The notes below the pieces were generated by a model. That model made no database searches. It worked only from the letters and a program-made list of their open reading frames with translations, and was not told the origin of the DNA. Positions 3,265-63,259 of a DNA stretch of 64,000 bases are shown piece after piece; position 1 is the stretch's first letter, and each line of letters begins with the position of its first letter. The position numbers were made by a program, and so were the translations under genes. The stretch covers positions 2,529 through 66,528 of the IMG/VR virus record IMGVR_UViG_2859180793_000001, one strand, 5' to 3'. Source of the DNA: a virus. Its lineage: Duplodnaviria; Heunggongvirae; Uroviricota; Caudoviricetes.

Positions 3265-3278
3265 AGTCAAAACTTACT
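3265..3278 (+). promoter_or_regulatory. palindromic element, degenerate copy AGTCAAAACTTACT
   Basis: One mismatch to AGTCAAAACTGACT (compare 21079). Sits just 5' of the 37-bp conserved element. Confidence 0.4.
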
Positions 3279-3366: not shown

Positions 3367-4560
3367 ATGAGCGAGAACTCGGAAAAGATCACCTGCGAAA
3401 TCTGCAACGCGCAAGTCCACTCGATCCAAATCCACCTGCGTAAGGACCACGCTGATTGGACGGTGGAGAGCTACCAAGCTGCCTACCCGGACGCGCCGCT
3501 GCTGTCGGAAACGGCCAAGCGGGCGATCGCCGAGAAGCGCAAGGAATCGACGACTGCGGCGCCGCTGGAAATGGCCGGCACCGCCGCAGTCGCCGCTGCG
3601 CCGAACGTCGCCTCGCTGATGCCAAAGGGCCAGTTGGTGAAGCAGCCGTTCCACGAAGTCTTCGGCTTGGGCAAGGTTGCCGCTGCCCTGTCGAGCAAGA
3701 AAGAGCCGATCCCCATCAGCGTGGTCGCCACGTCGGCGCACCCGAACATGGTGCCCAACAAGTCGGACGACTACGTGTATGACGTGGACGAACTGAAGAA
3801 TGTCATCCTCGCGCTGGAACTGAACATCCCCTGCTACGTCTGGGGCCACAAGGGCTCGGGCAAGTCGGAGCTGTATGAGCAAATCTGCGCCCGCACCAAT
3901 CGCGCGATGATCCGCGTCCAGCACACGGTCAACACCGAAGAGAGCCACATCGTCGGACAGTGGGTCGTCAAAAACGGCCAGACCGAGTTCGAGTTGGGAC
4001 CGCTGCCGCTGGCCATGAAGAACGGCTGGGTCTACGCCGCCGACGAATACGACTTCGCGCTGCCGAGCGTGCTGTCGGTCTACCAGGCAGTGCTCGAAGG
4101 CAAGGCGCTGGTGATCAAGGAGGCCGACGCCGCCAACCGCGTGATCGAGCCGCATCCGAACTTCCGCTTCGTCGCCACCGGCAACACGAACGGCAGCGGC
4201 GACGAAACGGGCCTGTATCAGGGCACCTCGCTCCAGAACAGCGCCAACTACGACCGCTTCGGCATGGTCGTCCACAAGCAATACATGAAGAAACAGTTCG
4301 AGAGCCTGATCCTCCAGAAGCGAGTCGGTCTGGTGAAGGAAGACGCTGACAAGATGGTGGACTTCGCGGCGCTCGTGCGCGAAGCGTATGACGGCGCCAA
4401 GATCAGCGACGTGATTTCGCCTCGCACGCTGATCTACTCGGCCAAGATCGGCGTGAAGCGCGGCTCGTTCCGCCAGGGCATCCAGCTGTCCTTCATCAAC
4501 AAGCTGTCGAAGGTGGACCGCGAAGTGGTGGACGGTCTGGCACAACGCATCTTCGGCTGA
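3367..4560 (+). CDS. cobS: CobS-like MoxR-family AAA+ ATPase
   Basis: Start ATG 3367 with a GGAG RBS (the in-frame upstream ATG at 3313 lacks one). N-terminal C-x2-C/H-x4-H segment. Walker A GHKGSGKS, Walker B-like VYAADEYD. The RFVATGNTNG core is typical of the CobS/MoxR family. Confidence 0.7.
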   Translation: MSENSEKITCEICNAQVHSIQIHLRKDHADWTVESYQAAYPDAPLLSETAKRAIAEKRKESTTAAPLEMAGTAAVAAAPNVASLMPKGQLVKQPFHEVFGLGKVAAALSSKKEPIPISVVATSAHPNMVPNKSDDYVYDVDELKNVILALELNIPCYVWGHKGSGKSELYEQICARTNRAMIRVQHTVNTEESHIVGQWVVKNGQTEFELGPLPLAMKNGWVYAADEYDFALPSVLSVYQAVLEGKALVIKEADAANRVIEPHPNFRFVATGNTNGSGDETGLYQGTSLQNSANYDRFGMVVHKQYMKKQFESLILQKRVGLVKEDADKMVDFAALVREAYDGAKISDVISPRTLIYSAKIGVKRGSFRQGIQLSFINKLSKVDREVVDGLAQRIFG

Positions 4561-4566
4561 TCGACC

Positions 4567-5223
4567 ATGTATAGCACGGACGTTCTTGAGTGCTACCAGG
4601 GGAACCTGGGGCTGGTGCATAAGGTGGCACGCAACTGCCACCGCCGGCTCCAGGCGATCGGTGCAGCGATGGAGTTCGAGGACGTGGTGGGCGAAGTCCG
4701 TCAGTCGCTGATTGTGGCGCACGCGAGCTTCGATCCCAAGCAGGGATTCGAGTTTTGCACCTACTTTGGCCGCGCCGCTTACAACCACATGAACCGGATC
4801 GCCGAGCGCGTCGAGTTGGAGCGCGTGGAGAACGCCACCTACTCGATCGAGGAGATCAACGCGGGGCGGGGTGAGAACGCGACGCCGGTCGAGGAGACCA
4901 TCAGCAGCGACGCCATGACGCCGGACGAGGTGTTGGAAGCGAAGCAGCGCCAGGCGCGCGCACTGCGCATGACCGAGCGCCTGTCACCGGTGGCGCAACT
5001 GATCGTGGAGTGGCTGGTGAACCCGCCGCCCGAGTTGTTGGCGGAGATTACCCGCCACCGTGCGCACGCGGAAGTCGCCCGCAACATGGGCCTCGCTCGC
5101 CGCTCCCATGCCGGTCTCACGATGGACTTCGTGAGCAAGATGATCGGAGCCGCGACGGGCCTTCCCGCCAAAACCATCCTCAACGCCCGCCGCGAAGTGC
5201 AGGACGTGATTGATTCGCTTTAA
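4567..5223 (+). CDS. sigma-70 family sigma factor-like protein
   Basis: GNLGLVHKVARN...FDPKQGFEFCTYFGRAAYNHMNR resembles sigma-70 regions 2.1-2.4. The C-terminus has HTH-like character. Confidence 0.55.
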   Translation: MYSTDVLECYQGNLGLVHKVARNCHRRLQAIGAAMEFEDVVGEVRQSLIVAHASFDPKQGFEFCTYFGRAAYNHMNRIAERVELERVENATYSIEEINAGRGENATPVEETISSDAMTPDEVLEAKQRQARALRMTERLSPVAQLIVEWLVNPPPELLAEITRHRAHAEVARNMGLARRSHAGLTMDFVSKMIGAATGLPAKTILNARREVQDVIDSL

Positions 5224-5957: not shown

Positions 5958-5976
5958 AATCAACACTGACTATTTC
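5958..5976 (+). promoter_or_regulatory. palindromic element, degenerate copy AATCAACACTGACT+ATTTCA
   Basis: 16 nt upstream of the dnaE RBS. Confidence 0.45.
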
Positions 5977-9366: not shown

Positions 9367-9386
9367 AGTAACTATTGACTATTAAC
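9367..9386 (+). promoter_or_regulatory. palindromic element, degenerate copy AGTAACTATTGACT+ATTAAC
   Basis: Lies between the dnaE stop and the next gene. Confidence 0.45.
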
Positions 9387-9443
9387 CCCTACGTGCAGAC
9401 CGTAATCTGTGTCTGTTGAACGACATACCGCAAGGAGATCGAC

Positions 9444-10497: not shown

Positions 10498-10516
10498 AGT
10501 CAACGCTGACTATAAT
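10498..10516 (+). promoter_or_regulatory. palindromic promoter-like element AGTCAACGCTGACT+TATAAT (consensus copy)
   Basis: Perfect palindrome plus perfect TATAAT, about 95 nt upstream of the SSB gene. Confidence 0.6.
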
Positions 10517-10611
10517 TAATTCGCTGAAACGAGGTAAGCGGTCGCCAATTTATCGGCGACTGCCCAACTCAAAAAGGCACCTCTCAACTCGAAACGAAAC
10601 AAGGAAAAGCG

Positions 10612-14561: not shown

Positions 14562-14923
14562 TGCGCTACCCGCACTCGGTGAACGGCCGCTTCTATGGCA
14601 ACTGGCATTACCTGCCGTCTGGCAAGGCACTCTACCTGGCGCACCGCCGCCCGAGCGAAGTATTTCACCGCCGCACGGCCTGGTGCATCGACGTGCGCAC
14701 GTTGGAAGAGGCCAAGACGCGCGGCATCTCCTACATCGGCGTGGTCACGCGCAACGGCAAGAAGCGCAATTTCTGGATCACCCTGGTGGAGGACTTCTTC
14801 ACCGATCCGCATAGCTTCAGCCACTTTGGGGACACACGCCAGCGCGGGCTCCCACTGTCCCGTTTTCGCATCAACCCGTCGGCAACCGCGAGCGCGATTG
14901 CTTCTGCCATGTCGCTTCGATAG
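14561..14923 (+). CDS. hypothetical protein
   Basis: GTGATG overlap with the upstream gene. 120 aa. Confidence 0.45.
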   Translation: MRYPHSVNGRFYGNWHYLPSGKALYLAHRRPSEVFHRRTAWCIDVRTLEEAKTRGISYIGVVTRNGKKRNFWITLVEDFFTDPHSFSHFGDTRQRGLPLSRFRINPSATASAIASAMSLR

Positions 14924-14957
14924 TCGTTCCTGACTGATTCGATTACAATGTAAAAAC

Positions 14958-14977
14958 AGTCAATAGTGACTTACATT
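14958..14977 (+). promoter_or_regulatory. palindromic promoter-like element AGTCAATAGTGACT+TACATT nested in a 7-bp IR
   Basis: Flanked by AATGTAA (14947..14953) and TTACATT (14971..14977). Upstream of the hicA-like gene. Confidence 0.5.
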
Positions 14978-20532: not shown

Positions 20533-20551
20533 AGTCAGCACTGACAATAAT
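20533..20551 (+). promoter_or_regulatory. palindromic promoter-like element AGTCAGCACTGACA+ATAAT
   Basis: Flanked by the 10-mers TGACCGGTCA (20518..20527) and TGACTGGTCA (20552..20561). Confidence 0.5.
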
Positions 20552-21078: not shown

Positions 21079-21098
21079 AGTCAAAACTGACTTACACT
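21079..21098 (+). promoter_or_regulatory. palindromic promoter-like element AGTCAAAACTGACT+TACACT
   Basis: Upstream of nrdA. Confidence 0.55.
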
Positions 21099-23483: not shown

Positions 23484-23497
23484 AGTCAACATTGACA
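23484..23497 (+). promoter_or_regulatory. palindromic element AGTCAACATTGACA
   Basis: Immediately after the nrdA stop, followed by a GNRA hairpin. Confidence 0.45.
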
Positions 23498-24823: not shown

Positions 24824-24854
24824 TTTTGTTCCCGCTCTAATATAAGTCACAACT

Positions 24855-24873
24855 GACTATAATTAGACTGTCG
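24855..24873 (+). promoter_or_regulatory. palindromic promoter-like element AGTCACAACTGACT+TATAAT
   Basis: Perfect -10-like box, about 50 nt upstream of the lipoprotein gene. Confidence 0.55.
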
Positions 24874-24924: not shown

Positions 24925-25500
24925 ATGAAAAAGCACAAACGAATCTTCACAGTTGGCCTGGCCATTGGCGTTGCGCTCGCGTTCGCAGGCTGCGGCCGCA
25001 CCGAGCAGGTCGCACAGATTCCGCAGCCGCAGGTCGTGCAGCAAGCCGCACCGGCAGCCGCTGGCCAACCAGTCATCGTCAACGCCGCGCCTGCGCAGAG
25101 CGGTGGCGGCATGGGCGACATGCTGATGGGTGGCGCGATCGGCTATCTGCTGGGCTCCAGCGGCAACCGCAGCGCCCCGGTCCACGAAGAGCGCCGCGTC
25201 ACCAATGTGACGAACGTGACCAAGCACTACCACGTCACCGAAGCGCCGAAGCCGGCTGCACCGGCAGCGCAAGCGGCCACGCCAGCAGCAACGCCCGCAC
25301 CGGCGCCGGCCAAGCCCGCCTACGCGCCGACCTACGCGAACAAGCCGGCAGCGCCGACCGCCAGCTACAGCCCGAGCTACGCGAGCAAGTCGAGCACCAG
25401 CTCCAGTTCGTCCAGCTCCTCTTGGAGTCGCCCGAGCAGTTCGTCCTACTCGTCGATGAGTCGCAGCAGTTCCAGCAGTTTCAGCAGCGGTCGCCGATGA
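24925..25500 (+). CDS. lipoprotein (Pro/Ala/Ser-rich)
   Basis: Start ATG with a CAGGAGA RBS. Signal peptide plus lipobox LAFAGC. Low-complexity C-terminal half. Confidence 0.55.
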   Translation: MKKHKRIFTVGLAIGVALAFAGCGRTEQVAQIPQPQVVQQAAPAAAGQPVIVNAAPAQSGGGMGDMLMGGAIGYLLGSSGNRSAPVHEERRVTNVTNVTKHYHVTEAPKPAAPAAQAATPAATPAPAPAKPAYAPTYANKPAAPTASYSPSYASKSSTSSSSSSSSWSRPSSSSYSSMSRSSSSSFSSGRR

Positions 25501-26559: not shown

Positions 26560-26580
26560 AGTCAACCCTGACTTTTTATA
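26560..26580 (+). promoter_or_regulatory. palindromic promoter-like element AGTCAACCCTGACT+TTTTATA
   Basis: Upstream of 26591. Confidence 0.5.
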
Positions 26581-28226: not shown

Positions 28227-28240
28227 AGTCAGCAGTGACT
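28227..28240 (+). promoter_or_regulatory. palindromic element AGTCAGCAGTGACT nested in a 10-bp IR
   Basis: Flanked by CGGTAGGGAA (28205..28214) and TTCCCTACCG (28245..28254). Confidence 0.5.
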
Positions 28241-28316
28241 TGTGTTCCCTACCGCGCTTCTATAAGATTCTGTGTGTGCGCAGTGTTGCGCGAGTGCATG
28301 AAAGAGGGGCTTTCCA

Positions 28317-28757
28317 GTGCCAGCCGTCAAAGTCAATGCTGACTTACATATGCCGACCGTTCAGGAAGAACTAGATCGCAAGACGTTCGAGACCCTGGAG
28401 TGGCTGTTCGGGGCGGTGCGGCGCGGCAACCTCACGCAAGACCAATTTTCGACGGGCGTGGACACGTTGTTCATGGCTGTCAGCGGGCTGCTCGGCAAGG
28501 ACTTCATCGACCTGATTACGGCAGCCCAGGCGGAATGCTCGAACGAGGCGCCGGTGCTGAAGCGGGTGTTCGTGAATGGAAAAAAGATCCTCGTCATTAA
28601 GTGGACGGTGGGGTCGACGAGGGTGACGGTGGGCAAGCGGGTCAATGGCCTGGCTACCGGCGGCCATATCAAGGATTTCGACAGCGCGCTGGATGCCAAG
28701 AATACGTTCGAGCATCTGTGCCACGTTGTCACCAGCAAGGGATTTGAGGAGATTTGA
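28317..28757 (+). CDS. hypothetical protein
   Basis: GTG 28317 or ATG 28350. A second motif copy (28331..28344, AGTCAATGCTGACT+TACATA) abuts ATG 28350. Confidence 0.45.
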   Translation: MPAVKVNADLHMPTVQEELDRKTFETLEWLFGAVRRGNLTQDQFSTGVDTLFMAVSGLLGKDFIDLITAAQAECSNEAPVLKRVFVNGKKILVIKWTVGSTRVTVGKRVNGLATGGHIKDFDSALDAKNTFEHLCHVVTSKGFEEI

Positions 28758-31044: not shown

Positions 31045-31058
31045 AGTCAATACTGACT
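31045..31058 (+). promoter_or_regulatory. palindromic promoter-like element AGTCAATACTGACT
   Basis: 21 nt upstream of ATG 31079. Confidence 0.5.
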
Positions 31059-32481: not shown

Positions 32482-32513
32482 TTGACCGGTAGTCAGCAAT
32501 GACTATCGGTCAA
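32482..32513 (+). promoter_or_regulatory. 32-bp near-perfect palindrome centred on motif AGTCAGCAATGACT
   Basis: TTGACCGGTAGTCA-gcaa-TGACTATCGGTCAA (one mismatch). Upstream of 32544. Confidence 0.5.
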
Positions 32514-35994: not shown

Positions 35995-36013
35995 AGTCAA
36001 CGCTGACTATAAT
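35995..36013 (+). promoter_or_regulatory. palindromic promoter-like element AGTCAACGCTGACT+TATAAT
   Basis: Consensus copy, 55 nt upstream of the kinase-like gene. Confidence 0.6.
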
Positions 36014-41326: not shown

Positions 41327-41558
41327 GGAAAACTTTCAACCTCGCAGTGTGTGTGTTTTTGAGGAGTCTGACCGTCCCGTCGGACTCCTTCTTTTTGCAG
41401 CGCTCACGCCTTGGGCTCGCAGAACGCCCGCCCACCAGAAACGTTGGTGTGACGCGAATCGAAAGCGGTTGATGCTCGACCATGTGCGAAAGCGAAACGC
41501 GCTGGCCTGTGCGTCAGAACGCGCGGCCAATCAGGGGCGCTTTTTGCTTGCAAAACAC

Positions 41559-41577
41559 AGTCAACGCTGACTATACT
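41559..41577 (+). promoter_or_regulatory. palindromic promoter-like element AGTCAACGCTGACT+TATACT
   Basis: Plus-oriented. The downstream region is antisense to the hxlR-like gene. Confidence 0.5.
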
Positions 41578-43330: not shown

Positions 43331-43678
43331 ATGCAACTCCAGCAAGTCGAAACCTTCATCGACAACCTCAACGTCCTGCAAGCCAACGTGCGCGAACTGC
43401 GTCGCATGGCCCAGGCCACCGGAGCGCTCGGTCTGGGCGGCATGTCCGACAAGATCGCCGCCGTCTGCGCGTCCGTCGAGTCGGTCGAGGCCAACATGCG
43501 CGCCCATGCAGCCCATCAGGCCGCTGCCGCGCTGCCCGCCATCATCGAAACGCTGACGGCCGCCACCGCAATGGCCGCACAACAGCCCCAGCCCGTCCGT
43601 CATCCGGCCAGTCTGCCGGAAGTGGCTGTGATGGCCGTCTTCTCCACTGATTTGATGGGCAACGCAAGTCAGCACTGA
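43331..43678 (+). CDS. hypothetical protein (115 aa)
   Basis: GGAG RBS. Confidence 0.45.
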   Translation: MQLQQVETFIDNLNVLQANVRELRRMAQATGALGLGGMSDKIAAVCASVESVEANMRAHAAHQAAAALPAIIETLTAATAMAAQQPQPVRHPASLPEVAVMAVFSTDLMGNASQH

Positions 43679-43685
43679 CTATAAT
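43667..43685 (+). promoter_or_regulatory. palindromic promoter-like element AGTCAGCACTGACT+TATAAT
   Basis: Overlaps the end of gene 43331..43678. Followed 37 nt later by a terminator. Confidence 0.55.
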
Positions 43686-43721
43686 AGAGTCGTAAAGCTG
43701 ATTGTCTCCAATCCTCCAAAC

Positions 43722-43749
43722 GCCAGGGCACCCTCCCTGGCTTTTTTTT
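43722..43749 (+). terminator. rho-independent terminator
   Basis: GCCAGGG-caccct-CCCTGGC hairpin followed by TTTTTTTT. Confidence 0.7.
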
Positions 43750-43910
43750 GCCCTGAGGGCCTAGACGATCACGTATCGCCAATGTTGATACTCCTGTCGT
43801 TCGTTGCTACACTGTATCAACGCTGACGAGTGGCGCTCTCCCGATCTCGCTGGCGGTCTGCGATATGAACAACAAGGCTGCTTCCATAGGCAGCATGAAT
43901 GGAGAAAGTT

Positions 43911-44180
43911 ATGGAGCAAACAGTGAAGCGTTGGGGCAATAGCCTCGCGCTTCGTATCCCCAGCACATTGGCCGACGAGATTCACATCGCCGAAAATTCG
44001 GTGGTGGAACTTAACGTCCGTGATGGGCTGCTCGTGGCAGAAGTGAAGCCTTCGTTCTCCCTCGACGCAGCCCTTAATCTCCTTGAGACCAATCAGGAAC
44101 GACTCGATCCGATGATGGAATGGGGCGCGCCGGTAGGGAGCGAGTGGGGTGGACCGGACGAGGCCGCAAATTCCAAATAA
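43911..44180 (+). CDS. mazE: MazE/AbrB-SpoVT family antitoxin
   Basis: VKRWGNSLALRIPSTLADEIHIAENSVVELNVRDGLLVAEV matches the MazE/ChpS swapped-hairpin domain. ATG 43911 has a GGAGA RBS (ATG 43899 is also in frame). Confidence 0.7.
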   Translation: MEQTVKRWGNSLALRIPSTLADEIHIAENSVVELNVRDGLLVAEVKPSFSLDAALNLLETNQERLDPMMEWGAPVGSEWGGPDEAANSK

Positions 44181-44183
44181 CCA

Positions 44184-44582
44184 ATGCGAAACCTCAAAAC
44201 TTTCAACGTAGAAGTGGATGTGAAGTGGGCCAACGTTCGCAGTCCAGCGGAAGGCGAAATTTGGTGGGTCGATCTGGACCCCACAAAGGGTCACGAACAA
44301 GCAGGCCACCGGCCCGTCGTAGTGTTGTCGCTTCAGCGATTCAATGGCGTCACCAAGCGTTTAATCGGTGTGCCTGTAACGACCAGCATTGCACCGCCAG
44401 GCTCTGGGCGCGCCGCCTTTCAGGTGCCCTTGTCCGGTTGCGAGAAACCTAGCGCAGCGCTGCCCGACCAGATCACGACTCTGGATTGGGAAGCCCGGAA
44501 AGCAACGTTCACCGGGTGGAAGGCAACCGAAGCCGAGATGGACGAAATCTGGCTTCGCATTCGCGGCATTTGTGGCCGATAA
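44184..44582 (+). CDS. mazF: MazF/PemK family endoribonuclease toxin
   Basis: GEIWWVDLDPTKGHEQAGHRPVVVLS...GVPVTTS aligns to MazF DLIWVDFDPTKGSEQAGHRPAVVLS...CVPCTTQ. The start may be GTG at about 44214-44220. Confidence 0.75.
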   Translation: MRNLKTFNVEVDVKWANVRSPAEGEIWWVDLDPTKGHEQAGHRPVVVLSLQRFNGVTKRLIGVPVTTSIAPPGSGRAAFQVPLSGCEKPSAALPDQITTLDWEARKATFTGWKATEAEMDEIWLRIRGICGR

Positions 44583-44603
44583 GCGGTCAAGATTCACCCT
44601 TCA

Positions 44604-44630
44604 AAGCGCCTGAAAAGGCGCTTTTTCTTT
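44604..44630 (+). terminator. rho-independent terminator after mazF
   Basis: AAGCGCC-tgaaaa-GGCGCTT hairpin followed by TTTTCTTT. Confidence 0.7.
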
Positions 44631-44698
44631 GTGTGCTCGCCTTGTGATGCGTAAGCCACTGATTTTAAAGGGAAAAATCGCTCTGTAAGACGTTCCGG

Positions 44699-44713
44699 CA
44701 CTCTTATAGAACC
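44699..44713 (+). promoter_or_regulatory. class-B motif CACTCTTATAGAACC
   Basis: CCTTATA(G/C)AG family. Plus-oriented and antisense to the DUF4145-like gene. Confidence 0.4.
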
Positions 44714-44869
44714 CTGCCGCAACTCGCACCCCGTGGGAGCAAAACGCAACAGCGCAGAGAGCGACCGCAGACACGCACACACCGACCGACGAGAACGCGC
44801 GCAGAAGCGATCCAAACGACCGGTTGACCGTCTGACACGTCTAGACCGCAGAAGCGATTACAGCGCGTT

Positions 44870-45559
44870 TTAACGAGTCGGTTTGAGCGAAGCAATGGCT
44901 GCGTCTACGGTCCTAGCAAGTTCCTCGGCTTGCGGGTCTGGCTTCGCAGGTTCAGAAGGCGCGGCCTTGCGCCGGCCACGAGCAACACGAGCAGGCAGCT
45001 CAAACAGAAGCTCGGCCAACGCCTCGGCGAACTTCAGGACACGCCGGGCATCCTCCAGGGTCGGCTTGGGAAGTTCATCGTCGGCATGCCGCTCATTGTT
45101 GGCCTCCAGACGAACCTCGTGCGCCCAGTCCTTCATGTCAGGAGTAATGAGGTGATCGGCAGCAGCCTGTTCGATTCGCTTGTGAAGGTTCCCGGTCTTG
45201 TAGCCCTTCTCCTTGAGCATCCAGTCCACAGCAGTCGCAGAACCAATGATGCTAAGGCGCGGCGTCGCCAAGGCAGCATGAGCATCCGCAAGGCTCTCAC
45301 GCGCACGCTCGGGAATGTCCATCGAGTAAGTCTTCGGCTTAGGCCAGGTGTTCACGACGGTCAGGAACTTGGAAGCCTGCACGACCGTAAGCAGGCCACA
45401 AGTGCCGCACTGAAGGGCAAACACCCAACCGCCGTCATCGGCCGCAACTATGTCCTTGTAGACCATCGAGAGGTTCGGCTTGGCGATCAGACAATGCGGA
45501 CACCGATGAAGTTGAAGATAGTTCGGCAGCGAGTTTTCAAAGGCCATAGCAGGGAGCAC
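44870..45559 (-). CDS. zinc-ribbon + DUF4145-like domain protein
   Basis: N-terminal C-x2-C...C-x2-C. C-terminal GNLHKRIEQAAADHLITPDMKDWAHEVRLEANNERH resembles the DUF4145 signature (K..L..RI..L.....I.......H.lR..GN.aAH). Confidence 0.5.
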   Translation of the reverse strand: MLPAMAFENSLPNYLQLHRCPHCLIAKPNLSMVYKDIVAADDGGWVFALQCGTCGLLTVVQASKFLTVVNTWPKPKTYSMDIPERARESLADAHAALATPRLSIIGSATAVDWMLKEKGYKTGNLHKRIEQAAADHLITPDMKDWAHEVRLEANNERHADDELPKPTLEDARRVLKFAEALAELLFELPARVARGRRKAAPSEPAKPDPQAEELARTVDAAIASLKPTR

Positions 45560-45743
45560 TCATGGTTCGACGCGCCAAGGATACGACACACGGAGGAGAC
45601 AACAGAAGACAGAGAGTGAGTGAGGAGTGTGCGGGCAGGTGTGGTAGGCGGCAGTTGGTGTCTGGTGGGGCGGGGGAAAGTAATACGTCGACGAAAAGCC
45701 AACGCGCTCGGGGAAACCTTACACATTGCCGATTGACAACAAC

Positions 45744-45763
45744 AGTCACCACTGACTATAGTT
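45744..45763 (+). promoter_or_regulatory. palindromic promoter-like element AGTCACCACTGACT+ATAGTT
   Basis: Preceded by TTGACA. Followed by an about 500-bp non-coding stretch. Confidence 0.5.
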
Positions 45764-46111
45764 TCGCTCAAATGGTTGCCTGCAAGCAGTAAGTCGTTTT
45801 CGGCGCTTGAGTGCAGGGAGTCGCTTCTTTTCTCGGGGGCTTGTTCTTGCCTGTCGGGTTGTCATACGCGGAGATGCCTCCGATGTGGCCCAACGGTGGA
45901 ATGGCTTCCCTACCTCTCACTACCAGGCTGCAAAGGCTGTGGGGGGGTAGGGGGGCTTATTCTTCCGCTAGGGTTCCTCATCGGAGGGGTATCAAAACAA
46001 TAACAACCCCTCACTGTGTTTGTTCATTGTAGAGATCACGGACCAAAGCTCGCCGCGCGGGATACGGGTGCGAAGCCAGACAGGCGACCCCGTGGAGAGC
46101 CCAAGTCCGGT

Positions 46112-46142
46112 CCCCTATAAGAACGTCGGAGAGTCCCTATAA
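46112..46142 (-). promoter_or_regulatory. two class-B motif copies (CCCTATAAG x2; minus orientation CTTATAGGG)
   Basis: Copies at 46112..46121 and 46134..46142, 22 nt apart. Confidence 0.4.
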
Positions 46143-46194
46143 GTTTCCAAGGCCGCGTGCCTTCTTCCTAGGAGAAAAACAGCCCCTGCCGCTC

Positions 46195-46203
46195 TTATAG
46201 GGC
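46195..46203 (+). promoter_or_regulatory. class-B motif CTTATAGGG (plus orientation)
   Basis: About 75 nt upstream of gene 46278. Confidence 0.4.
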
Positions 46204-46277
46204 GATTGCATGTTCCCACCCTCACTCCTGCGTCAGCTTGCGAAGCTGAGAGCTTCCTACTGACGCACGGAGGCGAC

Positions 46278-46472
46278 ATGCCGGTTCCCACCACACGTCC
46301 TGACTTGGCTTGTGACACTGCATCTATCGAAACAACAGTCACGGAGCAAGGGATGTTCGGTATCACGCATGAGGGGTGCAACGTTCTCTACAAGGGTCGC
46401 GTTATTGAAGAGTGCAAGAGCGAGGCCGAAGCCATCGCCCGTCGCGACGAAATCATCAACGTCTACATGTAA
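46278..46472 (+). CDS. hypothetical protein (64 aa)
   Basis: ACGGAGG RBS. Confidence 0.45.
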   Translation: MPVPTTRPDLACDTASIETTVTEQGMFGITHEGCNVLYKGRVIEECKSEAEAIARRDEIINVYM

Positions 46473-46814: not shown

Positions 46815-46982
46815 ATGGACATGGGAATCACGCTGTTGGCTTACATGCTCGCCGGCTGCGCAATCGCTGCGACGGCCTGGGGTATTGCCAAGACGGTGGA
46901 TGCCGCGCTGTGGGCGCAGGACAAGCTGACGCGGATGTGGCTGCGCCGGATGCCGGCCCGTTTGCGTGCCATCAATCGGTAG
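46815..46982 (+). CDS. small membrane protein (55 aa)
   Basis: Single TM helix, basic C-terminus. Start 2 nt after the upstream stop. Confidence 0.4.
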   Translation: MDMGITLLAYMLAGCAIAATAWGIAKTVDAALWAQDKLTRMWLRRMPARLRAINR

Positions 46983-46994
46983 TCAATGCTGACT
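46981..46994 (+). promoter_or_regulatory. palindromic element AGTCAATGCTGACT
   Basis: Begins an about 260-bp non-coding stretch. Confidence 0.45.
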
Positions 46995-47257
46995 CTACGC
47001 GGCCACACCAGGCCGCCTGGAGTCTCCCAACCAGCGGCCTAGGCCAGGCGCCTCGGCCAGGCCAGTTGGCCAACCCAACCATGTTCGCCCGATCCACGCG
47101 CCCCAGGGAACTGCCATGGGCACGCCTTGGAAGAGTGCCACGGGTGGACATTTCTAGCGCAGCACGCAGGGACAGATAGCGCTCCTGCCTGCGCCCCAAC
47201 CACGTTCCCATGTTGCCGGTGACGAACCCCAATGCGGGTAACGCATACTGCACATGT

Positions 47258-47277
47258 AGTCAGCACTGACTGATAAA
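47258..47277 (+). promoter_or_regulatory. palindromic promoter-like element AGTCAGCACTGACT+GATAAA
   Basis: 27 nt upstream of ATG 47304. Confidence 0.5.
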
Positions 47278-47303
47278 ACGCAAAACAACTTCAGAGGATC
47301 GCT

Positions 47304-47543
47304 ATGCACCGTTTCCCCAAAGCCAAAGCCATTGAATCCACTATCGAGCGCGCGGAACCGACCGACGTGCCGGACATGCAGAACGATCAGGAGCGCGAAC
47401 CGCTGCCGCAGCGTCTGTATCAAGGCATGAGCGACTATACGCTCGCTGCCTATCTGGAAGACATGCAGGAGCGGGCTGAGATCGAGCAACTGCGCCGCAC
47501 GATTCGCACCAATGGCAAGCTGACCGCCACCGACCTCTACTAA
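47304..47543 (+). CDS. hypothetical protein (79 aa)
   Basis: AGAGGA RBS. Confidence 0.45.
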   Translation: MHRFPKAKAIESTIERAEPTDVPDMQNDQEREPLPQRLYQGMSDYTLAAYLEDMQERAEIEQLRRTIRTNGKLTATDLY

Positions 47544-47907
47544 GCACGAGGGCGGTATGCCAAGACAGTGAACCGCTGCGCAGGCTGTGATGCGCAGCAG
47601 GGCTTCGCAACAGCGAAGCGGGTGGCAAGTCACCAAGGAGCGCGTCCACGGGCGTGATGTGTCAATGTGGGCCGCATGCTGCCGGTCTTTGGTGCTCACG
47701 GGATACGGCGCGCCAGCTGACTGGGCGGCCCGAGGGATACGGCGAGCAAGCCAGATTGGACAGAGCCAGGCGGTTGCCTGCCCGTCTCCTTGGCCAGACG
47801 TAGGGGCCCGCCTGCGTGACGCCTGGGTGCGCCTGAGCGCACGCGAGTATCACGCCCCGCGCCTCCCTACAAGCGAAACCCCATGATCCTCGCCGATACA
47901 ACATCGA

Positions 47908-47966
47908 TGCTTAAAAACATTTTGCTTAAAAAAGTGCTTGCTTGTCCCTGTGGTGTCTGTAGAATT
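47908..47966 (+). promoter_or_regulatory. sigma-70-like promoter with A-tract UP element for low-GC moron
   Basis: GCTTAAAAA repeats. -35 TTGCTT (47938..47943), 16-bp spacer ending in TG, then -10 TAGAAT (47960..47965). Confidence 0.45.
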
Positions 47967-48021
47967 GTCTCTGTTGCGAGTGCAACAACACACAAACAAA
48001 CACACACGAAAGGTAAACATC

Positions 48022-48631: not shown

Positions 48632-48645
48632 AGTCAGCGCTGACT
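48632..48645 (+). promoter_or_regulatory. palindromic element AGTCAGCGCTGACT (extended AACAGTCAGCGCTGACTGTT)
   Basis: Followed by TTGACA and a half copy AGTCAGCGC at 48661..48669. Confidence 0.5.
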
Positions 48646-48763
48646 GTTGACAAGCGAGACAGTCAGCGCCCTAGCGCAGGGGTTCAACGACCGGTCAGAC
48701 CGAGACCGATGTCCTAGAACTCCTGCGCGCCCGCCTATACCCAGCCTTCCTCGTTCCGGTCCC

Positions 48764-50001: not shown

Positions 50002-50397
50002 TCAAACGCCGGCTTCAACCAGCGCATTTTCGATCTGTTCTTCCGTCGGCGGGGCGGCTTCTGAGTGCTCCGGGGCAGGGCCACCAATATCGCCAGGCGC
50101 AGGAAAACGGACCAGCCACGTCTGCGCGTAGTCCGTGATGGTGTCGATGCCCGACACGCGGCGCTCGTAACCCTTGAGCAGCAGCTGGGAGCCGTTGGCC
50201 CAAACCAGTTCGGCGTCGAACAGCATCCACTCGCGCTTGTCCTCGGTCTGGATCAACTCCGCCACCCGCGTGCTCAGGCGGTCGATGGTGTCCCGTTTGG
50301 TGTTCAGGCGCAGCACGCCGCGTGTGCCTCCCATCGCCCGCATCCACTTCTGCTTCATGATGCCGCCCAACTTGAGCGGCGTGACATGCACTTTCAT
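50002..50397 (-). CDS. hypothetical protein (132 aa), LexA-box-associated
   Basis: ATG at 50397 with an AGGTG RBS. A LexA-like box lies immediately upstream. Confidence 0.45.
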   Translation of the reverse strand: MKVHVTPLKLGGIMKQKWMRAMGGTRGVLRLNTKRDTIDRLSTRVAELIQTEDKREWMLFDAELVWANGSQLLLKGYERRVSGIDTITDYAQTWLVRFPAPGDIGGPAPEHSEAAPPTEEQIENALVEAGV

Positions 50398-50409: not shown

Positions 50410-50429
50410 TACTGTATGGATATACAGTA
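50410..50429 (-). promoter_or_regulatory. LexA/SOS box TACTGTATGGATATACAGTA (CTGT-N8-ACAG)
   Basis: 17 of 20 matches to the TACTGTATATATATACAGTA consensus. 13-32 nt upstream of the minus-strand start at 50397. Confidence 0.6.
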
Positions 50430-52307: not shown

Positions 52308-52321
52308 AGTCAATATTGACT
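52308..52321. promoter_or_regulatory. palindromic element AGTCAATATTGACT in divergent region
   Basis: TATACT -10-like box on the minus side (facing the helicase). ATTCCT on the plus side (facing ParB-like 52345). Confidence 0.5.
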
Positions 52322-52344: not shown

Positions 52345-52986
52345 ATGTCGCAATTCCCGACGGTGGACCCGAAGCTGTTGCGCCACAACCCGTGGAACAC
52401 CAACGTCGTGTCGCCGGACAACGAGGCCAAGCTGGACGAATCGGTCGAGCGGCTGGGCATGTTCAAGCCGATCATCGTGCGCGAGCTGCCCGACGGCACG
52501 CTGGAAATCCTGGGCGGGGCACACCGCCGCGATGCTGCGATTCGCAAGAAGTTGGCCTCTGTTCCGATCATGAATCTGGGTCGCATCTCTGACCAGCGGG
52601 CCAAAGAAATCAGCCTCGTGGACAACGGCCGCTACGGCGCGGACGACACGCTGCGCCTGGCAGAGCTGCTGGATGGTTTGGGCAATCCCGACGAGCTGTC
52701 GAAGTTCATGCCCTACACCGACGCCGACTTCGCGTCGATCTTCTCGTCAGTGAGTATTGCGCTGGACGAGCTAGACATACCCGATGACGACGAGCCCGCG
52801 ACGCATTTGCCCACCGAAAAGAAGGTGCAGACGCACCAGATCATGCGGTTCAAGGTGCCGGTGGAGGACGTGGGTCGGGTGACAGACGTGATCGAACGGA
52901 TCATGAAGACCCAGCGCTTCACAGAAGAGGACAGCCTCACCAATGCCGGCAACGCGCTGGTCCACCTCTGCACCAGGGGAGCGTGA
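52345..52986 (+). CDS. ParB-like nuclease domain protein
   Basis: LEILGGAHRRDAA is a ParB/sulfiredoxin-fold motif. 213 aa. Confidence 0.6.
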   Translation: MSQFPTVDPKLLRHNPWNTNVVSPDNEAKLDESVERLGMFKPIIVRELPDGTLEILGGAHRRDAAIRKKLASVPIMNLGRISDQRAKEISLVDNGRYGADDTLRLAELLDGLGNPDELSKFMPYTDADFASIFSSVSIALDELDIPDDDEPATHLPTEKKVQTHQIMRFKVPVEDVGRVTDVIERIMKTQRFTEEDSLTNAGNALVHLCTRGA

Positions 52987-53161
52987 GTTGGCTCGCTGTG
53001 ACCACCCCTTTCCCGAGTGCCAGACCTGTGCGAACCGCGAGTTCGATCCGCAGCAGTGCGACAGCTGTGTGGACGGCTCCAATTACGAGTTCGACGACGA
53101 GGATTACCTGACCATTCAGCATTTCCTGCAACCCTTCATGAAGCTCAAGGAAGCTGCATGA
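52943..53161 (+). CDS. small Cys4 zinc-finger protein
   Basis: CDHPFPECQTC...CDSC. The true start may be TTG at about 52988, after the upstream stop. Confidence 0.35.
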   Translation: MPATRWSTSAPGERELARCDHPFPECQTCANREFDPQQCDSCVDGSNYEFDDEDYLTIQHFLQPFMKLKEAA

Positions 53162-53805
53162 CCGAGACCAAGCCCAACATCCAGTCGTGGGACATTGCGC
53201 GGCTGACCCCCTACGACAAAAACGTCAAGAAGCACGACGCCGCGCAGGTGTCGAAGATCGCCGAGTCGATCCGCCGCTTCAAGTGGACGCAACCGATCGT
53301 GGTCGACCGCAATGGCGTGATTATCAATGGCCACGGCCGGCGCCTGGCCGCCATCGAGCTGGGGCTCACGCAGGTGCCAGTGTGGGTGCGCGATGACCTG
53401 ACCGACGAGGAAGTGCGTGCCGCGCGCCTGGCGGACAACCGGGTCGCGCTGTCGGACATTGACGCCGACATGCTCCAGGAGGAGCTGGCCGCCTTGAATC
53501 TGGATCTCACCGGGATCTTCGACGACAAGGAGCTGAACTTCCTGACCGCCGATCTGGGCGAGATGAACGAAAGCGCGTTCGTGGACGACCTTGAAGCGGA
53601 GATTGCCGAGCAGGTGGCGGAGACCAAGCGCGAGATCGAGGCCACCGACGTGCGCGACGTGAAGATCGCCAAGGCGCTGGGCTTTTCCTCGATCCGAGGC
53701 AAGGACGAGCGCGTCGTCGCACGCTTCATGGCTGCCGCCGAGGCCGAGACTGGTCTCATGGGTGCGGACGCCTTCATCGCACACCTCAAAACGCTGGCCG
53801 GCTGA
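53158..53805 (+). CDS. ParB-like N-terminal domain protein
   Basis: ATGA overlap with the upstream gene. IVVDRNGVIINGHGRRLAAIELGL is a ParB-Nterm motif. Confidence 0.6.
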   Translation: MTETKPNIQSWDIARLTPYDKNVKKHDAAQVSKIAESIRRFKWTQPIVVDRNGVIINGHGRRLAAIELGLTQVPVWVRDDLTDEEVRAARLADNRVALSDIDADMLQEELAALNLDLTGIFDDKELNFLTADLGEMNESAFVDDLEAEIAEQVAETKREIEATDVRDVKIAKALGFSSIRGKDERVVARFMAAAEAETGLMGADAFIAHLKTLAG

Positions 53806-53809: not shown

Positions 53810-53828
53810 AGTCAGCATTGACTATCAA
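53810..53828 (+). promoter_or_regulatory. palindromic promoter-like element AGTCAGCATTGACT+ATCAAC
   Basis: 5 nt before ATG 53833. Confidence 0.5.
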
Positions 53829-56638: not shown

Positions 56639-57010
56639 ATGCACCTGACCGTCAAACAGATCGAACTGATGCGCGTAATCGGCGCGGGCAACCCCGACGG
56701 GTCGCCGGCGGACCTGGATCAAGTCCTGGAGCGCCTGAGCTACGAGACGACCAAGGCATCGCTCCAATTCTCGATCCGCGCGCTCATCAAGCACGGGTTG
56801 ATTGAGAAGGGCACACGCGAGAAGCGGCGGGGCCGCCAGCGGGTGCTCCTGCTCATTACGCCGGCCGGAAGCATGCACGTGCGCCCGACGGGGACTGTTG
56901 GGGCCGCCGCTGTCGTTGTCTCGGAAGAGCAGGACCGAGCCGAACAGACTCTTTCCGCGCTTGCTGGAGAAGAGTATGTCGATGCGGCCGACGAGTTTCT
57001 TGAGCCGTGA
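56639..57010 (+). CDS. winged-helix DNA-binding protein
   Basis: LSYETTKASLQFSIRALIKHGLIEKGTREKRRGRQRVLLLITPAG is PadR/MarR-like wHTH. Confidence 0.45.
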   Translation: MHLTVKQIELMRVIGAGNPDGSPADLDQVLERLSYETTKASLQFSIRALIKHGLIEKGTREKRRGRQRVLLLITPAGSMHVRPTGTVGAAAVVVSEEQDRAEQTLSALAGEEYVDAADEFLEP

Positions 57011-57462: not shown

Positions 57463-57481
57463 AGTCAGCACTGACTTGACA
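57463..57481 (+). promoter_or_regulatory. palindromic element AGTCAGCACTGACT followed by TTGACA ... TACAGT
   Basis: Possible sigma-70-like -35/-10 pair (17-bp spacer) just before the terminator. Confidence 0.45.
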
Positions 57482-57531
57482 TAGGATGCCGGGGCGGATA
57501 CAGTGGCGCCACAACTCCGGTTATCTCCAAT

Positions 57532-57562
57532 AGGGCGCTCACCTTTCGCGCCCTTTTTTTTT
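57532..57562 (+). terminator. rho-independent terminator before the packaging genes
   Basis: GGGCGC-tcaccttt-CGCGCCC hairpin followed by TTTTTTTTT. Confidence 0.7.
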
Positions 57563-57591
57563 AACCGCAGAACCCAACCAGGCAAACAGCA

Positions 57592-59507: not shown

Positions 59508-59518
59508 CTTGTCATTAA

Positions 59519-59537
59519 AGTCAATACTGACTATCAT
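59519..59537 (+). promoter_or_regulatory. palindromic promoter-like element AGTCAATACTGACT+ATCATT
   Basis: 9 nt before the portal ATG at 59546. Confidence 0.5.
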
Positions 59538-59545
59538 TGCCCGCC

Positions 59546-61168
59546 ATGAACACACTCCAGCCTGGCACCGTCGGAACCTTCGATCCGGTCGAAGCCACCA
59601 ACTCGACGCCCGTCGCCCCGCAAGGGGACGACCAGAAGCGCCTGCGCCGGCTGGTGAGCCGCCGGCACCCCGAATACGACGAAATGCTGCTCCACTGGGA
59701 ATTCCTGGAGGAGACGTATTCGGGCGGGCGTGAGTGGTTTGACTCGAACATCTTCCGCTACATCAAGGAAGGCGATAAGGAATACAACGATCGCCTGCGT
59801 CGCTGCTACCGGTTCAACCACACCCGCGAGGTGGTGGACCTGGTGGACAAATACCTGTTCAAGCAGAACATCACCCGCAACGAGGACGACGCGCCGCAGT
59901 GCGTGAAGGACTTCTGGAAGCGATCGACTCGCAACGGCCTGTCGATCGAGGAGTTCATGCGCCAGAACTCCAAGAAGGCGTCCATCGGCGGGCGCATCGG
60001 CATCGTGGTCGACACTACGGCCAGCCCGATCGTGATCAGCAAGGCAGAAGAGCGCGCCGCCGGCGTGCAGACCTATGCCTACGCGGTCGGCCCCGAGCAG
60101 TTGCTGGACTACTCCTTTGACAGCAAGGGCAACCTGAACTGGATTCTCATCAAGGAGTGCAAGCGCGACGACGAAGATCCCTTCGAGTCTTCGGGCGACG
60201 AGATCGAGCGCTTCCGCCTGTGGACCCAGAACGACTGGAAGCTCTACGAGGAGCAAGGCACCGGTCGCCGCAAGAAGATCGTGCTGGTCGACTCGGGCGC
60301 GCACAACCTTGGCGAAGTGCCGGTCATCCTGGCAGACAACATCATCAGCGACGAGCCGTATTGCTCGCCCGCGATGATCGACGACATTGCCTACCTGGAC
60401 CGCGCCGTTGCCAACTACCTGAGCAACCTGGACGCGATCATTCAGGACCAGACCTTTTCGCAGTTGGCCATGCCGGCGCAGAACATGCTGCCTGGTGAGG
60501 ACAACTACACGAAGCTGTTGGAGATGGGCACCAAGCGCGTGTTCCTCTACGACGGCGAGGGCGGCGCGCAGCCGTTCTACCTCTCCCCGGACCCCAAGCA
60601 GGCCGAGCTGATCCTCGCGGCGATCCACAAGATCATCAACGAGATCTACCACACGGTCGGCCTGGCCGGGGAGCGCACCAAGTCGGACAACTCGCTCGGG
60701 ATCGACAACTCTTCCGGCGTTGCCAAGGCTTACGACTTCGAGCGAGTGAATGCTCTGTTGGCGGCCAAGGCAGACAGCCTGGAGGTGGTCGAGAACAAGA
60801 TCGCCCGTCTGGTGGCGCTCTGGAACGGCGAAGAGAGCCGCGTGACGGACGAGCTGGTCTCCTACCCGGATGACTTCGACACGCGCGGGCTCTACGACGA
60901 GTTCGACATTGCGGCACGCTTGTCGCTCATCGGTGCGCCGGACGCGATCCAGCAGCAACAGATGCGCGCAGTGCTCGACAAGCTGTTCCCGCAGCTGGCC
61001 AAGGATCTGCGTGCCGAGATGGAGAAGCAGCTCAAGAAGTGGCCGGCGGACCCCGCCCAGACCACGGACGGCGGCAACTCCGCAGGCACGCCGCCCAAAC
61101 AGGACTCGACGCCGAAGCAGCCTGGCGACAACCGCCAGGGGCAGGTGACGAAATCCACCCCGCAGTAA
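59546..61168 (+). CDS. portal protein
   Basis: About 540 aa, directly after the terminase. ATG 59546 is used; the ORF track begins at TTG 59537. Confidence 0.7.
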   Translation: MNTLQPGTVGTFDPVEATNSTPVAPQGDDQKRLRRLVSRRHPEYDEMLLHWEFLEETYSGGREWFDSNIFRYIKEGDKEYNDRLRRCYRFNHTREVVDLVDKYLFKQNITRNEDDAPQCVKDFWKRSTRNGLSIEEFMRQNSKKASIGGRIGIVVDTTASPIVISKAEERAAGVQTYAYAVGPEQLLDYSFDSKGNLNWILIKECKRDDEDPFESSGDEIERFRLWTQNDWKLYEEQGTGRRKKIVLVDSGAHNLGEVPVILADNIISDEPYCSPAMIDDIAYLDRAVANYLSNLDAIIQDQTFSQLAMPAQNMLPGEDNYTKLLEMGTKRVFLYDGEGGAQPFYLSPDPKQAELILAAIHKIINEIYHTVGLAGERTKSDNSLGIDNSSGVAKAYDFERVNALLAAKADSLEVVENKIARLVALWNGEESRVTDELVSYPDDFDTRGLYDEFDIAARLSLIGAPDAIQQQQMRAVLDKLFPQLAKDLRAEMEKQLKKWPADPAQTTDGGNSAGTPPKQDSTPKQPGDNRQGQVTKSTPQ

Positions 61169-62131: not shown

Positions 62132-62235
62132 AAAACCTTCGGGGTCATTAAACAGTCAGTATTGACTGTTTAAAGGATCAGTGGTATTGTCCGGTCCTAC
62201 TCGGTGACTAGAGCGACTTAGACCCCGAAGGTTTT
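62132..62235 (+). other. 15-bp perfect inverted repeat AAAACCTTCGGGGTC / GACCCCGAAGGTTTT enclosing palindromic motif
   Basis: Arms at 62132..62146 and 62221..62235 with a 74-bp spacer. The spacer holds the 26-bp palindrome 62148..62173 (TTAAACAGTCA-gtat-TGACTGTTTAA). Confidence 0.55.
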
Positions 62236-62246: not shown

Positions 62247-62260
62247 AGTCAACACTGACT
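62247..62260 (+). promoter_or_regulatory. palindromic promoter-like element AGTCAACACTGACT
   Basis: 27 nt upstream of the capsid ATG. Confidence 0.5.
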
Positions 62261-63210: not shown

Positions 63211-63229
63211 AGTCAATATTGACTATCAT
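63211..63229 (+). promoter_or_regulatory. palindromic element AGTCAATATTGACT+ATCATA
   Basis: Between the capsid stop and the terminator hairpin. Confidence 0.5.
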
Positions 63230-63230
63230 A

Positions 63231-63259
63231 GGGGCGAGCCGAGAGGCCCGCCCCTTTTT
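63231..63259 (+). terminator. rho-independent terminator after major capsid gene
   Basis: GGGGCGAGCC-gaga-GGCCCGCCCC stem (one mismatch) followed by TTTTTC. Confidence 0.65.

Follow-up and report, generated by a model that had tools for sequence, protein, structure and literature searches.

A dispersed palindrome in register with promoters of a Ralstonia pickettii prophage and its relatives is a candidate genome-wide operator

The stretch of viral DNA analysed here, 64,000 nucleotides long and called the window below (positions 2,529 to 66,528 of IMG/VR record IMGVR_UViG_2859180793_000001), carries a 14-bp palindrome, AGTCA-N4-TGACT, that is repeated along its length, is restricted to the gaps between genes and often stands in register with promoter hexamers. 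On balance, we favour the view that these sites form a genome-wide operator set that is embedded in sigma-70-type promoters and bound by a phage regulator that would exclude RNA polymerase. The element that carries them is a temperate siphophage of ~110 kb integrated in Ralstonia pickettii. An XRE protein encoded at 73–561 on the minus strand is identical to an R. pickettii protein encoded on a 1.7-Mb contig, and the DNA immediately to the left of the window holds genes for an HTH_23 protein, an excisionase-like HTH_17 protein and an integrase and then pgsA, uvrC and efp of the host (L328, 10001–13089). Thus, the window represents most of an integrated prophage, with the XRE gene at the prophage end next to the HTH_23, xis-like and integrase genes. 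The carrier chromosome is R. pickettii GCA_002849525.1, contig PKQE01000001.1.

The exact sequence AGTCANNNNTGACT occurs 24 times in the window, compared with 0.04 occurrences expected from dinucleotide-preserving shuffles. Nine additional palindromes carry one mismatch, which brings the total to 33, and their mismatches are divided 5 versus 4 between the two arms. Genes were called with a codon-usage model trained on the long open reading frames of the window, and all 33 copies are intergenic or merely touch a stop codon, despite the fact that ~84% of the window is coding. An earlier note on this DNA, made from the sequence alone, had proposed roughly 30 copies that are almost all intergenic, and both statements hold in the motif scan and the tally of coding and intergenic hits. 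Its list of copies needs correction, however: the site given as 24855 is located at 24845, the supposedly near-perfect site at 20533 carries one mismatch (TGACA) and the sites at 641, 687 and 14922 were overlooked. Copies span positions 641 to 63211, and in relatives of the prophage they extend through the structural genes. The palindrome itself has no strand bias, is often lengthened to TA...TA and, in the Ralstonia prophage, has an RYRY bias in its central four bases. No description of it was found in the searchable literature, and no Rfam family matches the element.

The same note described the palindrome as fused to a TATAAT-like box, as is observed at the site it flagged (10498–10516, AGTCAACGCTGACTATAAT). 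Of the 31 copies with a terminal T, 9 have a TAnnnT box that starts at this T, against an intergenic background of 3.3% (p = 5e-7), and 2 copies have one on the opposite side. Thus, the box is real and its orientation follows that of the gene, as had been proposed, but it belongs to a subset of copies and is not a property of the motif; the 19-mer consensus that includes TATAAT is found, with up to 3 mismatches, at just 10 places in the window. The proposal that the geometry departs from the standard sigma-70 layout is wrong, as TTGACA-like boxes lie 17–18 bp upstream of the TATAAT-like box (copies 45744, 59519, 41559 and 43667). In total, 16 of the 33 copies overlap a −35/−10-like pair spaced by 16–18 bp, and the 17 sigma-70-like predictions made for the window include about 12 that touch one.

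These overlaps fall into distinct registers. In the first, the palindrome fills the spacer (centre at −18.5) and its last T is the first T of the −10 box. Exact copies occupy the spacers of plus-strand TTGCAA-18-TATACT (41548–41577, copy 41559–41572), TTGACA-18-TATAGT (45733–45762, copy 45744–45757), TTGTCA-17-TATCAT (59509–59548, copy 59519–59532, a layout conserved family-wide) and TGGGCA-18-TATAAT (43656–43749, copy 43667–43680), the last of which is followed by a ~45-nt leader and an intrinsic terminator at 43722–43749. Plus-strand copies fused to TATAAT are located at 24845–24863 (exact), 35995–36013 (exact, 59 nt before a start codon and with a terminator upstream) and 10498–10516, where AGTCAACGCTGACT plus TATAAT is the flagged copy and forms the promoter of the SSB gene. 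At 20533–20546, AGTCAGCACTGACA is followed by ATAAT within a larger inverted repeat (GACCGGTCAAT/ATTGACTGGTC), and at 63211–63260 an exact plus-strand copy with TATCAT lies between the capsid-gene stop codon and a strong terminator (63230–63260), an arrangement that is orthologous in pAMS5a.

In the second register, the palindrome abuts or supplies the −35 box (centre at −41.5 or −36.5). The exact copy that opens the plus-strand unit 57463–57563 abuts TTGACA-17-TACAGT (57476–57504) with its centre at −41.5; a leader, a strong terminator (57532–57563) and the terminase genes follow, and the copy has an orthologous position in TerL loci. The same −41.5 centre is found on the plus strand at 9367–9408 (AGTAACTATTGACT, past the DnaE stop codon, −10-like TAATCT at 9403–9408, conserved in relatives) and at 28227–28268 (exact copy with flanks GGTAGGGAA/TTCCCTACC, −10-like TAAGAT at 28263–28268). 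In the plus-strand unit 62154–62190, the right arm of an exact copy provides TTGACT as the −35 box for TG-TATTGT (62185–62190). The exact copy at 48632–48652 is followed by a plus-strand TTGACA and also sits in the spacer of a minus-strand TCAACA-18-TATTAT. In a further register the site lies over +1, and at copies 789 and 52308 the palindrome is just past a −10 box. At 789–807 on the plus strand, AGTTAACATTGACT fused to TATAAT begins 2 nt past TTGAAA-18-TAAGAT (758–787). The exact copy at 52308–52321 occupies the divergent gap between the helicase and a ParB_N gene: plus-side TTGCCA-17-TAAAGT ends 3 nt before it, and TATACT on the minus side points at the helicase, as the earlier note had stated. 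The position of the palindrome relative to the hexamers therefore varies (−18.5, −36.5, −41.5 and +1 to +14), and the palindrome itself is not the promoter.

Hundreds of related ~110-kb phage contigs carry the palindrome at orthologous gaps between genes. Loci of relatives were fetched with DnaE, TerL and CobS, and the gene order of the window is shared with Pseudomonas phage nickie, Rhizobium phage RHEph10 and the Methylobacterium plasmid-prophage pAMS5a. Most relatives carry the palindrome, including 41 of 45 DnaE loci, and the G+C content of the carriers ranges from 40% to 66%. The palindrome is conserved ahead of the small terminase gene, in the TerL–portal and CobT–CobS gaps, around the capsid gene and downstream of DnaE; the gaps in the TerL neighbourhood keep it in phages of 44–62% GC. 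Across the family, the general form is AGT(C/A)A-N4-T(G/T)ACT, with some lineages using AGTAA/TTACT throughout and others mixing both half-site types. Genomes of the AGTAA type include IMGVR_UViG_2582580780_000006, 2565957133_000002 and 3300046474_000274. RHEph10 has 6 copies in 43 kb, and pAMS5a (117.7 kb) has 42 copies distributed over its replication, head, tail and lysis modules. The full 112-kb genome of nickie, although syntenic, has zero copies and no other repeated palindrome. A scan of viral contigs for TTAGTAANNNNTTACTAA, aimed at genomes of the AGTAA type, returned almost exclusively unrelated AT-rich contigs.

A pool of 574 non-identical family sites exhibits the same promoter registers. 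TAnnnT at position 37 is found 118 times on the gene strand and 6 times on the other, whereas the neighbouring positions give 7 and 12, and TTGnnn at position 14 is found 85 versus 7 times. This combination, in which the palindrome abuts the −35 box and the −10 box comes 17 bp further on, is the dominant register in the family and had been missed in the earlier note. The −35 hexamer is the consensus TTGACA at 31 of the 118 sites centred at −41.5. The fused register is represented by TAnnnT at position 14 (76 versus 27, with 30 exact TATAAT). Because the position-37 peak stems from four to six orthologous gaps, it is partly inherited and its members are not independent. TAnnnT at position 15 was considered as a second −10 register and was rejected as an artefact of the TA...TA extension, as it is commoner on the reverse side (121 versus 69). 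Readings of the palindrome as an integration host factor (IHF) site, a LexA site, an extended −10 or an extracytoplasmic function (ECF) −35/−10 were likewise discarded, as the known consensus sequences do not fit.

Individual gaps show how closely palindrome and promoter are joined. At the SSB promoter, the block TAGTCA-N4-TGACTATAAT hardly varies among 7 phages, one of which has AGTCG as its left arm, whereas the centre, the upstream flank and the 6–7-nt stretch after the box vary; a conserved leader starts right past that stretch. Judged from these alignments, this is the pattern that would be expected of a genuine promoter and start site. Between TerL and the portal gene, the −35 box, palindrome and −10 box are retained family-wide. 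The portal ATG (59546) lies 8 nt past the −10 box TATCAT with no ribosome-binding site, and the distance is 6–8 nt in several relatives, so the portal mRNA is predicted to be leaderless. In pAMS5a, the promoter-like consensus TGAAACGCCG-N10-GCTATAAC has 11 copies, all on the gene strand and all outside the structural module (examples in L322–L324, record positions 106818, 101056, 90742 and 86885). The palindrome is at +1 to +14 in several of these promoters, abuts the −35 box in three and flanks one on both sides. Either the host RpoD or the sigma-like factor of the element itself may recognize them.

The pattern of conservation within the palindrome bears on how it may be recognized. The arms keep their sequence, whereas the centre varies freely. 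In lineages that mix half-site types, the arm combinations number CG 156, AG 37, CT 19 and AT 10 (Fisher p = 0.085), such that hybrids of C-type and A-type arms make up 56 of the 222 sites in mixed loci, with no significant coupling. Conserved arms, a free centre and uncoupled half-sites argue for a symmetric protein dimer on duplex DNA and against an RNA hairpin or cruciform, and the palindrome therefore fits a duplex-DNA site for a putative protein dimer better than an RNA hairpin.

The leading candidate for the protein that would bind this site is the CI-like XRE protein. It matches Pfam HTH_3 (E=8e-9) and has weak similarity to 434 Cro and to immunity repressors; dyads of 14 bp are typical of 434-type repressors. 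Operator clusters adjoin the XRE gene in the prophage and in relatives, in agreement with the earlier proposal that degenerate copies gather at the repressor switch. Here, three imperfect copies (641, 687 and 789) lie between the XRE promoter (747–720) and a rightward promoter, two further copies separate the HTH_23 gene from xis, and 7 kb of host flank contain none. The XRE promoter is a sigma-70-like TTGACT-16-TACAAT on the minus strand (720–747), and its transcript runs through copy 687–700 (AGTCAGCACTGATT, 1 mismatch), ~13–26 nt downstream of the predicted start, and copy 641–654 (AGTAAGAAGTGACT, hybrid half-sites), in the XRE leader. The XRE recognition helix PN(I/V/M)(I/L)(S/T)M(I/F)K is conserved in palindrome-bearing phages, is PNF or PNY in two phages of the AGTAA type and differs in three palindrome-less phages. 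This correlation is suggestive and is confounded by phylogeny. A search for XRE homologues gave only 5 proteins, too few for a test of covariation between helix and operator.

The second candidate is a sigma-like protein with region 2 plus a C-terminal helix-turn-helix, encoded at 4567–5223 on the plus strand. RHEph10, pAMS5a and most relatives have an XRE gene as well as a sigma-like gene, nickie lacks the two, and neither product can be assigned as the binder from sequence alone. Against the sigma-like protein, its gene is missing at the palindrome-bearing loci L311 and L319, and a sigma factor reads asymmetric elements ~17 bp apart and cannot read a 5-4-5 dyad. Profiling of open-reading-frame families against palindrome presence had no power, as only 2 full-length loci lack the palindrome. 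The winged-helix-like protein at 56639–57010 is unlikely to be the binder, as nickie has a homologue at 37% identity. The 70-aa gene at 861–1073 is conserved beside XRE in relatives, but as a Cro analogue it was rejected: it has no DNA-binding domain match and is absent from XRE-less relatives. The HTH_23 protein near XRE is not homologous to the HTH_23-like protein of L311. At CRP/FNR-type class II sites, a Crp-family protein reads a 5-N4-5 or 5-N6-5 dyad centred at −41.5 that replaces a weak −35 box; here the 5-N4-5 format and the −41.5 register are present, the adjacent −35 box is often consensus, and no Crp-type domain was found among the window proteins scanned.

From these patterns we infer the binding of a protein, its identity and the sign of the regulation. 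The palindrome would be the operator of a phage-encoded dimeric helix-turn-helix regulator, most probably the CI-like XRE protein with its own divergent control region and three imperfect copies, and this operator would be spread across essentially every transcription unit. A bound dimer would exclude RNA polymerase or block its transit, such that a single protein could silence dozens of promoters together and its loss would free all of them at once. Copies without hexamers may act as roadblocks, as proposed for L5 stoperators, or may have weak, undetected promoters. The prophage state points to a prophage-silencing operator set, as do the neighbouring HTH_3 gene and the clusters of operators, and placement in the spacer, on the −35 box and over +1 is consistent with repressor–operator behaviour. 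The earlier note had offered a phage-specific promoter class with a built-in palindrome or an operator set as alternatives; the outcome is a mixture of the two, with a putative dimer site lying within or against ordinary sigma-70-type promoters.

Several observations weigh against a set of operators for the prophage repressor. About half of the copies have no recognizable promoter. The SSB promoter has no conserved −35 box, which could mean that a bound protein is needed for initiation, and −41.5 is a classical activator position. Copies between a stop codon and a terminator (63211, and 40259 and 12915 in pAMS5a) are not explained by a simple operator model. The site is also almost invariant across very divergent phages, whereas immunity operators usually diverge fast. 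Finally, in several relatives, among them IMGVR_UViG_3300035180_000530 and 3300044806_000061, the DNA ligase gene is directly followed by CobT, with XRE, integrase and RepC absent from their usual place and palindrome density normal. Because these relatives keep the palindrome, the binder would either not be this XRE protein or be encoded elsewhere in their genomes; they do keep the sigma-like gene.

The strongest rival, to which we assign a clearly lower probability, is that the palindrome is a positive promoter element. A phage factor active in lytic growth, perhaps acting with the sigma-like protein at 4567–5223, would recruit or re-target the host RNA polymerase, and the copies would mark a phage-specific promoter class. 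The near-invariance of the SSB block TAGTCA-N4-TGACTATAAT without a conserved −35 box is what such an element might look like, and the family-wide centre at −41.5 is the class II activator position. Moreover, the relatives that lack the lysogeny module retain both the palindrome and the sigma-like gene, nickie has neither, and copies are present in early, nucleotide-metabolism and structural modules alike. However, the centres at −18.5, −36.5, −41.5 and +1 to +14 cannot share one activation mechanism, and an activator is unnecessary at the −41.5 sites that already have consensus TTGACA. The dyad is not the type of asymmetric, ~17-bp-spaced element that a sigma factor reads, and L311 and L319 bear the palindrome without the sigma-like gene. 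In addition, the ribosome-binding site is often so near that transcription starting 7 nt past the fused box would remove it.

A related possibility, which we hold only tentatively and well below the operator set, is that the palindrome is not a lysogeny operator but the site of a family-wide regulator of lytic growth, possibly partnered by the sigma-like protein, that represses at spacer and +1 sites and activates at −41.5 sites. If this is true, one promoter-embedded code would time the expression of a whole 110-kb genome, and it would have been preserved alike in the plasmid-prophages of Methylobacterium and Rhizobium and in Ralstonia prophages, and kept after the loss of lysogeny.

It is very improbable that the two ParB_N-domain proteins (52345–52986 and 53017–53805) use the copies as dispersed centromere-like or silencing sites, comparable to those of KorB on RK2. 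This would fit a phage-plasmid ancestry, as relatives are plasmid-prophages with ParA and RepC, the literature on this phage group describes plasmid-like prophages, and both proteins are encoded beside copies (52308 and 53810). KorB, a ParB homologue that can act at a distance, binds 12 dispersed palindromes on RK2 and offers a precedent. However, homologues with 54–57% identity are present in the palindrome-less L114 group, nickie has an annotated ParB-like partition protein beside its helicase, as in the window, and yet no palindrome, and the site is in register with promoter hexamers. On these grounds, the ParB_N proteins were rejected as the binder. It is equally doubtful that the copies serve priming, nicking, recombination at module boundaries or another process on DNA besides transcription: gene-boundary positions are conserved over long evolutionary distances, but the promoter elements have a direction and keep register with the copies, no mosaic breakpoints fall at copies in the alignments seen, and the lack of strand bias is what a dyad predicts.

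We consider it similarly far-fetched that the palindrome acts as an RNA or single-stranded DNA hairpin in intergenic transcripts, serving processing, stability, antitermination or translational control. Copies are always in transcribed gaps, many of them 4–26 nt from a start codon, some cap longer inverted repeats and some stand directly ahead of terminators; but a conserved stem with a free loop is the opposite of a protein-recognized hairpin, 25% of mixed-lineage sites carry an uncompensated A-G or C-T at the would-be pair, the mismatches of single-mismatch copies in the window are uncompensated in the opposite arm, the 5-bp stem alone is worth merely −3.2 kcal/mol, and Rfam has no match.

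The earlier note likened the copies to the stoperators of mycobacteriophage L5. The stoperators of L5 and cluster A are reportedly sites for the gp71 repressor; they are asymmetric 13-mers whose orientation follows transcription and that differ between subclusters. The likeness holds for copy number and intergenic placement, with tens of copies of a short site distributed genome-wide in short intergenic gaps, and in L5 one or more stoperators are also a true operator at an early promoter, and a single repressor is considered to silence the prophage. It fails for symmetry and evolutionary behaviour: the prophage site is a 5-4-5 dyad in which only the flanking promoter boxes are directional, it is nearly invariant over alpha- and beta-proteobacterial phages, about half of its copies lie within promoters, and relatives without a repressor module at the usual position still have it.

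In function, the nearest counterparts of these sites are the L5 stoperators together with the systems of phiC31, P1 and the lambdoid phages. The conserved inverted repeats of phiC31 are 17 bp long, number ~18, are bound by the c repressor and lie near early promoters and terminators. They resemble the present sites in being palindromic, multi-copy and near promoters and terminators, but they are limited to the early region of one phage group and to promoters that are not sigma-70-like, whereas the 14-bp sites described here are in all modules and in sigma-70-type register. P1 likewise has many dispersed operators for separate operons, and the present lineage includes plasmid-prophages. However, the operators of P1 C1 are 17-mers that lack symmetry and C1 falls outside the HTH_3 class, unlike the symmetric site and HTH_3 candidate here, and no homology was seen. 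Shared with lambda and 434 are a 14–17-bp dyad with a non-contacted centre, a neighbouring HTH_3 gene, three imperfect sites between divergent promoters, sites that overlap the −10 and −35 boxes of lytic promoters and one position near −42. Lambdoid phages differ in having two operator clusters and fast-diverging specificity, as opposed to at least 33 dispersed sites and slow divergence, and the present copies are not confined to the immunity region as are those of OL and OR. As with KorB and KorA of the IncP plasmid RK2, identical palindromes are dispersed across a replicon and would coordinate many promoters, but the ParB_N proteins, unlike KorB, do not track the palindrome in this phage group.

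The remaining copies in the window mostly lie close to the starts or ends of genes. Exact copies are located before start codons at 1184–1197 (21 nt before the CobT-like gene, with a terminator upstream at 1088–1114), 14958–14971 (20 nt before a HicA-like gene), 26560–26573 (17 nt, with a ribosome-binding site directly 3′), 28331–28344 (5 nt before a predicted start), 31045–31058 (20 nt), 47258–47271 (32 nt) and 62247–62260 (26 nt before a major-capsid-like gene). A further exact copy at 21079–21092 is upstream of the gene for the ribonucleotide reductase large subunit, and a degenerate copy at 5958–5971 (AATCAACACTGACT), 20 nt before the DnaE start, is not conserved in relatives. The gap between CobT and CobS contains AGTCAAAACTTACT (3265–3278), and relatives show the −35-abutting register in that gap. 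Exact copies are also found at a stop codon (46981–46994) and 4 nt past one (53810–53823), and AGTCGTTCCTGACT, with 1 mismatch, is at a stop codon (14922–14935).

Two structural claims of the earlier note concern the surroundings of the copies. The claim that several copies lie within larger inverted repeats agrees with what is seen at 20533, 24845, 28227, 32491 and 62154; the exact copy at 32491–32504, for example, has flanks TTGACCG/CGGTCAA. Flanking stems of at least 7 bp are a minority feature, present at 4.5% of the 574 family sites compared with 0.4% in controls. The claim that copies lie between a stop codon and a terminator stands for 43667, 57463 and 63211, each followed by a strong terminator; at 23484–23497 (AGTCAACATTGACA), past the reductase stop codon, the GC hairpin that comes next lacks a T-run.

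Further observations concern variants of the site and the transcripts near it. In one subclade (L007, L009, L021, L030, L032 and L043), the left arm TA-AGTCA is strict and the right arm drifts at its two outermost bases (TGACA, TGAAT and TGATT), often where a ribosome-binding site directly follows, which confers a direction on the site. A distant relative, L315, has five identical palindromes TTTTG-TCGTACCGGTACGA-CAAA at 3939–4310, mostly 46 bp apart and upstream of CobT; this iteron-like array occupies the place of the XRE control region in other relatives. The SSB 5′ leader (10517–10611), common to seven phages, consists of GCTGAAACGA and following sequence, a hairpin that seemingly retains pairing through sequence changes and then AAGTCTAAAAGGCA, and it may be autoregulatory. 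Two units composed of a promoter, a ~50-nt leader and a strong terminator (43680–43749 and 57476–57563) have TCTCCAAT in common in their leaders. These units are possible small RNAs or attenuators, similar to lambda 6S, and one directly precedes the terminase genes.

The window has a G+C content of 61.6%, with nearly every gene on the plus strand. Its replication and repair genes encode DnaE, SSB, an exonuclease, a UvsX/RecA-like recombinase, SbcCD, RuvC and a helicase, its metabolism genes encode ribonucleotide reductase, ThyX and MazG, along with CobT-like and CobS-like proteins, and its head genes encode the large terminase, a probable portal protein and a capsid-like protein. A nucleotide search of the window against a phage collection gave zero matches, a search against a plasmid collection gave only a short dnaE match, and an exact 51-mer from the window was absent from the viral contigs searched. 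Regions 43679–46352 and 46983–48021 lack open reading frames that are convincing by codon usage and contain many promoter-like and terminator-like sites. A second repeated word (CTTATAGA/CTTATACA/CTTATAGG) has about ten occurrences on both strands (among them 44703, 46121, 46143, 46194, 48777, 48810, 49130, 50707 and 28266) and is densest in the gene-poor 43.7–50.7 kb. A perfect LexA-type SOS box, TACTGTATGGATATACAGTA (CTGT-N8-ACAG), at 50410–50429 lies upstream of the minus-strand gene 50002–50397 and suggests that this prophage gene is under host SOS control. ARAGORN called a tRNA-Arg at 25243–25329 on the minus strand, within a predicted coding region where Rfam shows no tRNA, and this call is probably a false positive.

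If the sites do constitute a genome-wide operator set, one short DNA word and one protein would govern the majority of promoters in a phage and phage-plasmid group that is large, widespread and hardly studied, comprising RHEph10, pLM21S1, pAMS5a and hundreds of metagenomic relatives. With the palindrome, the promoters and transcription units of these genomes could be mapped directly, and it would provide a simple handle on how such elements stay silent or switch on. It would also represent a natural experiment in which an operator has stayed fixed over hosts of 40–66% GC while the genome elsewhere diverges.

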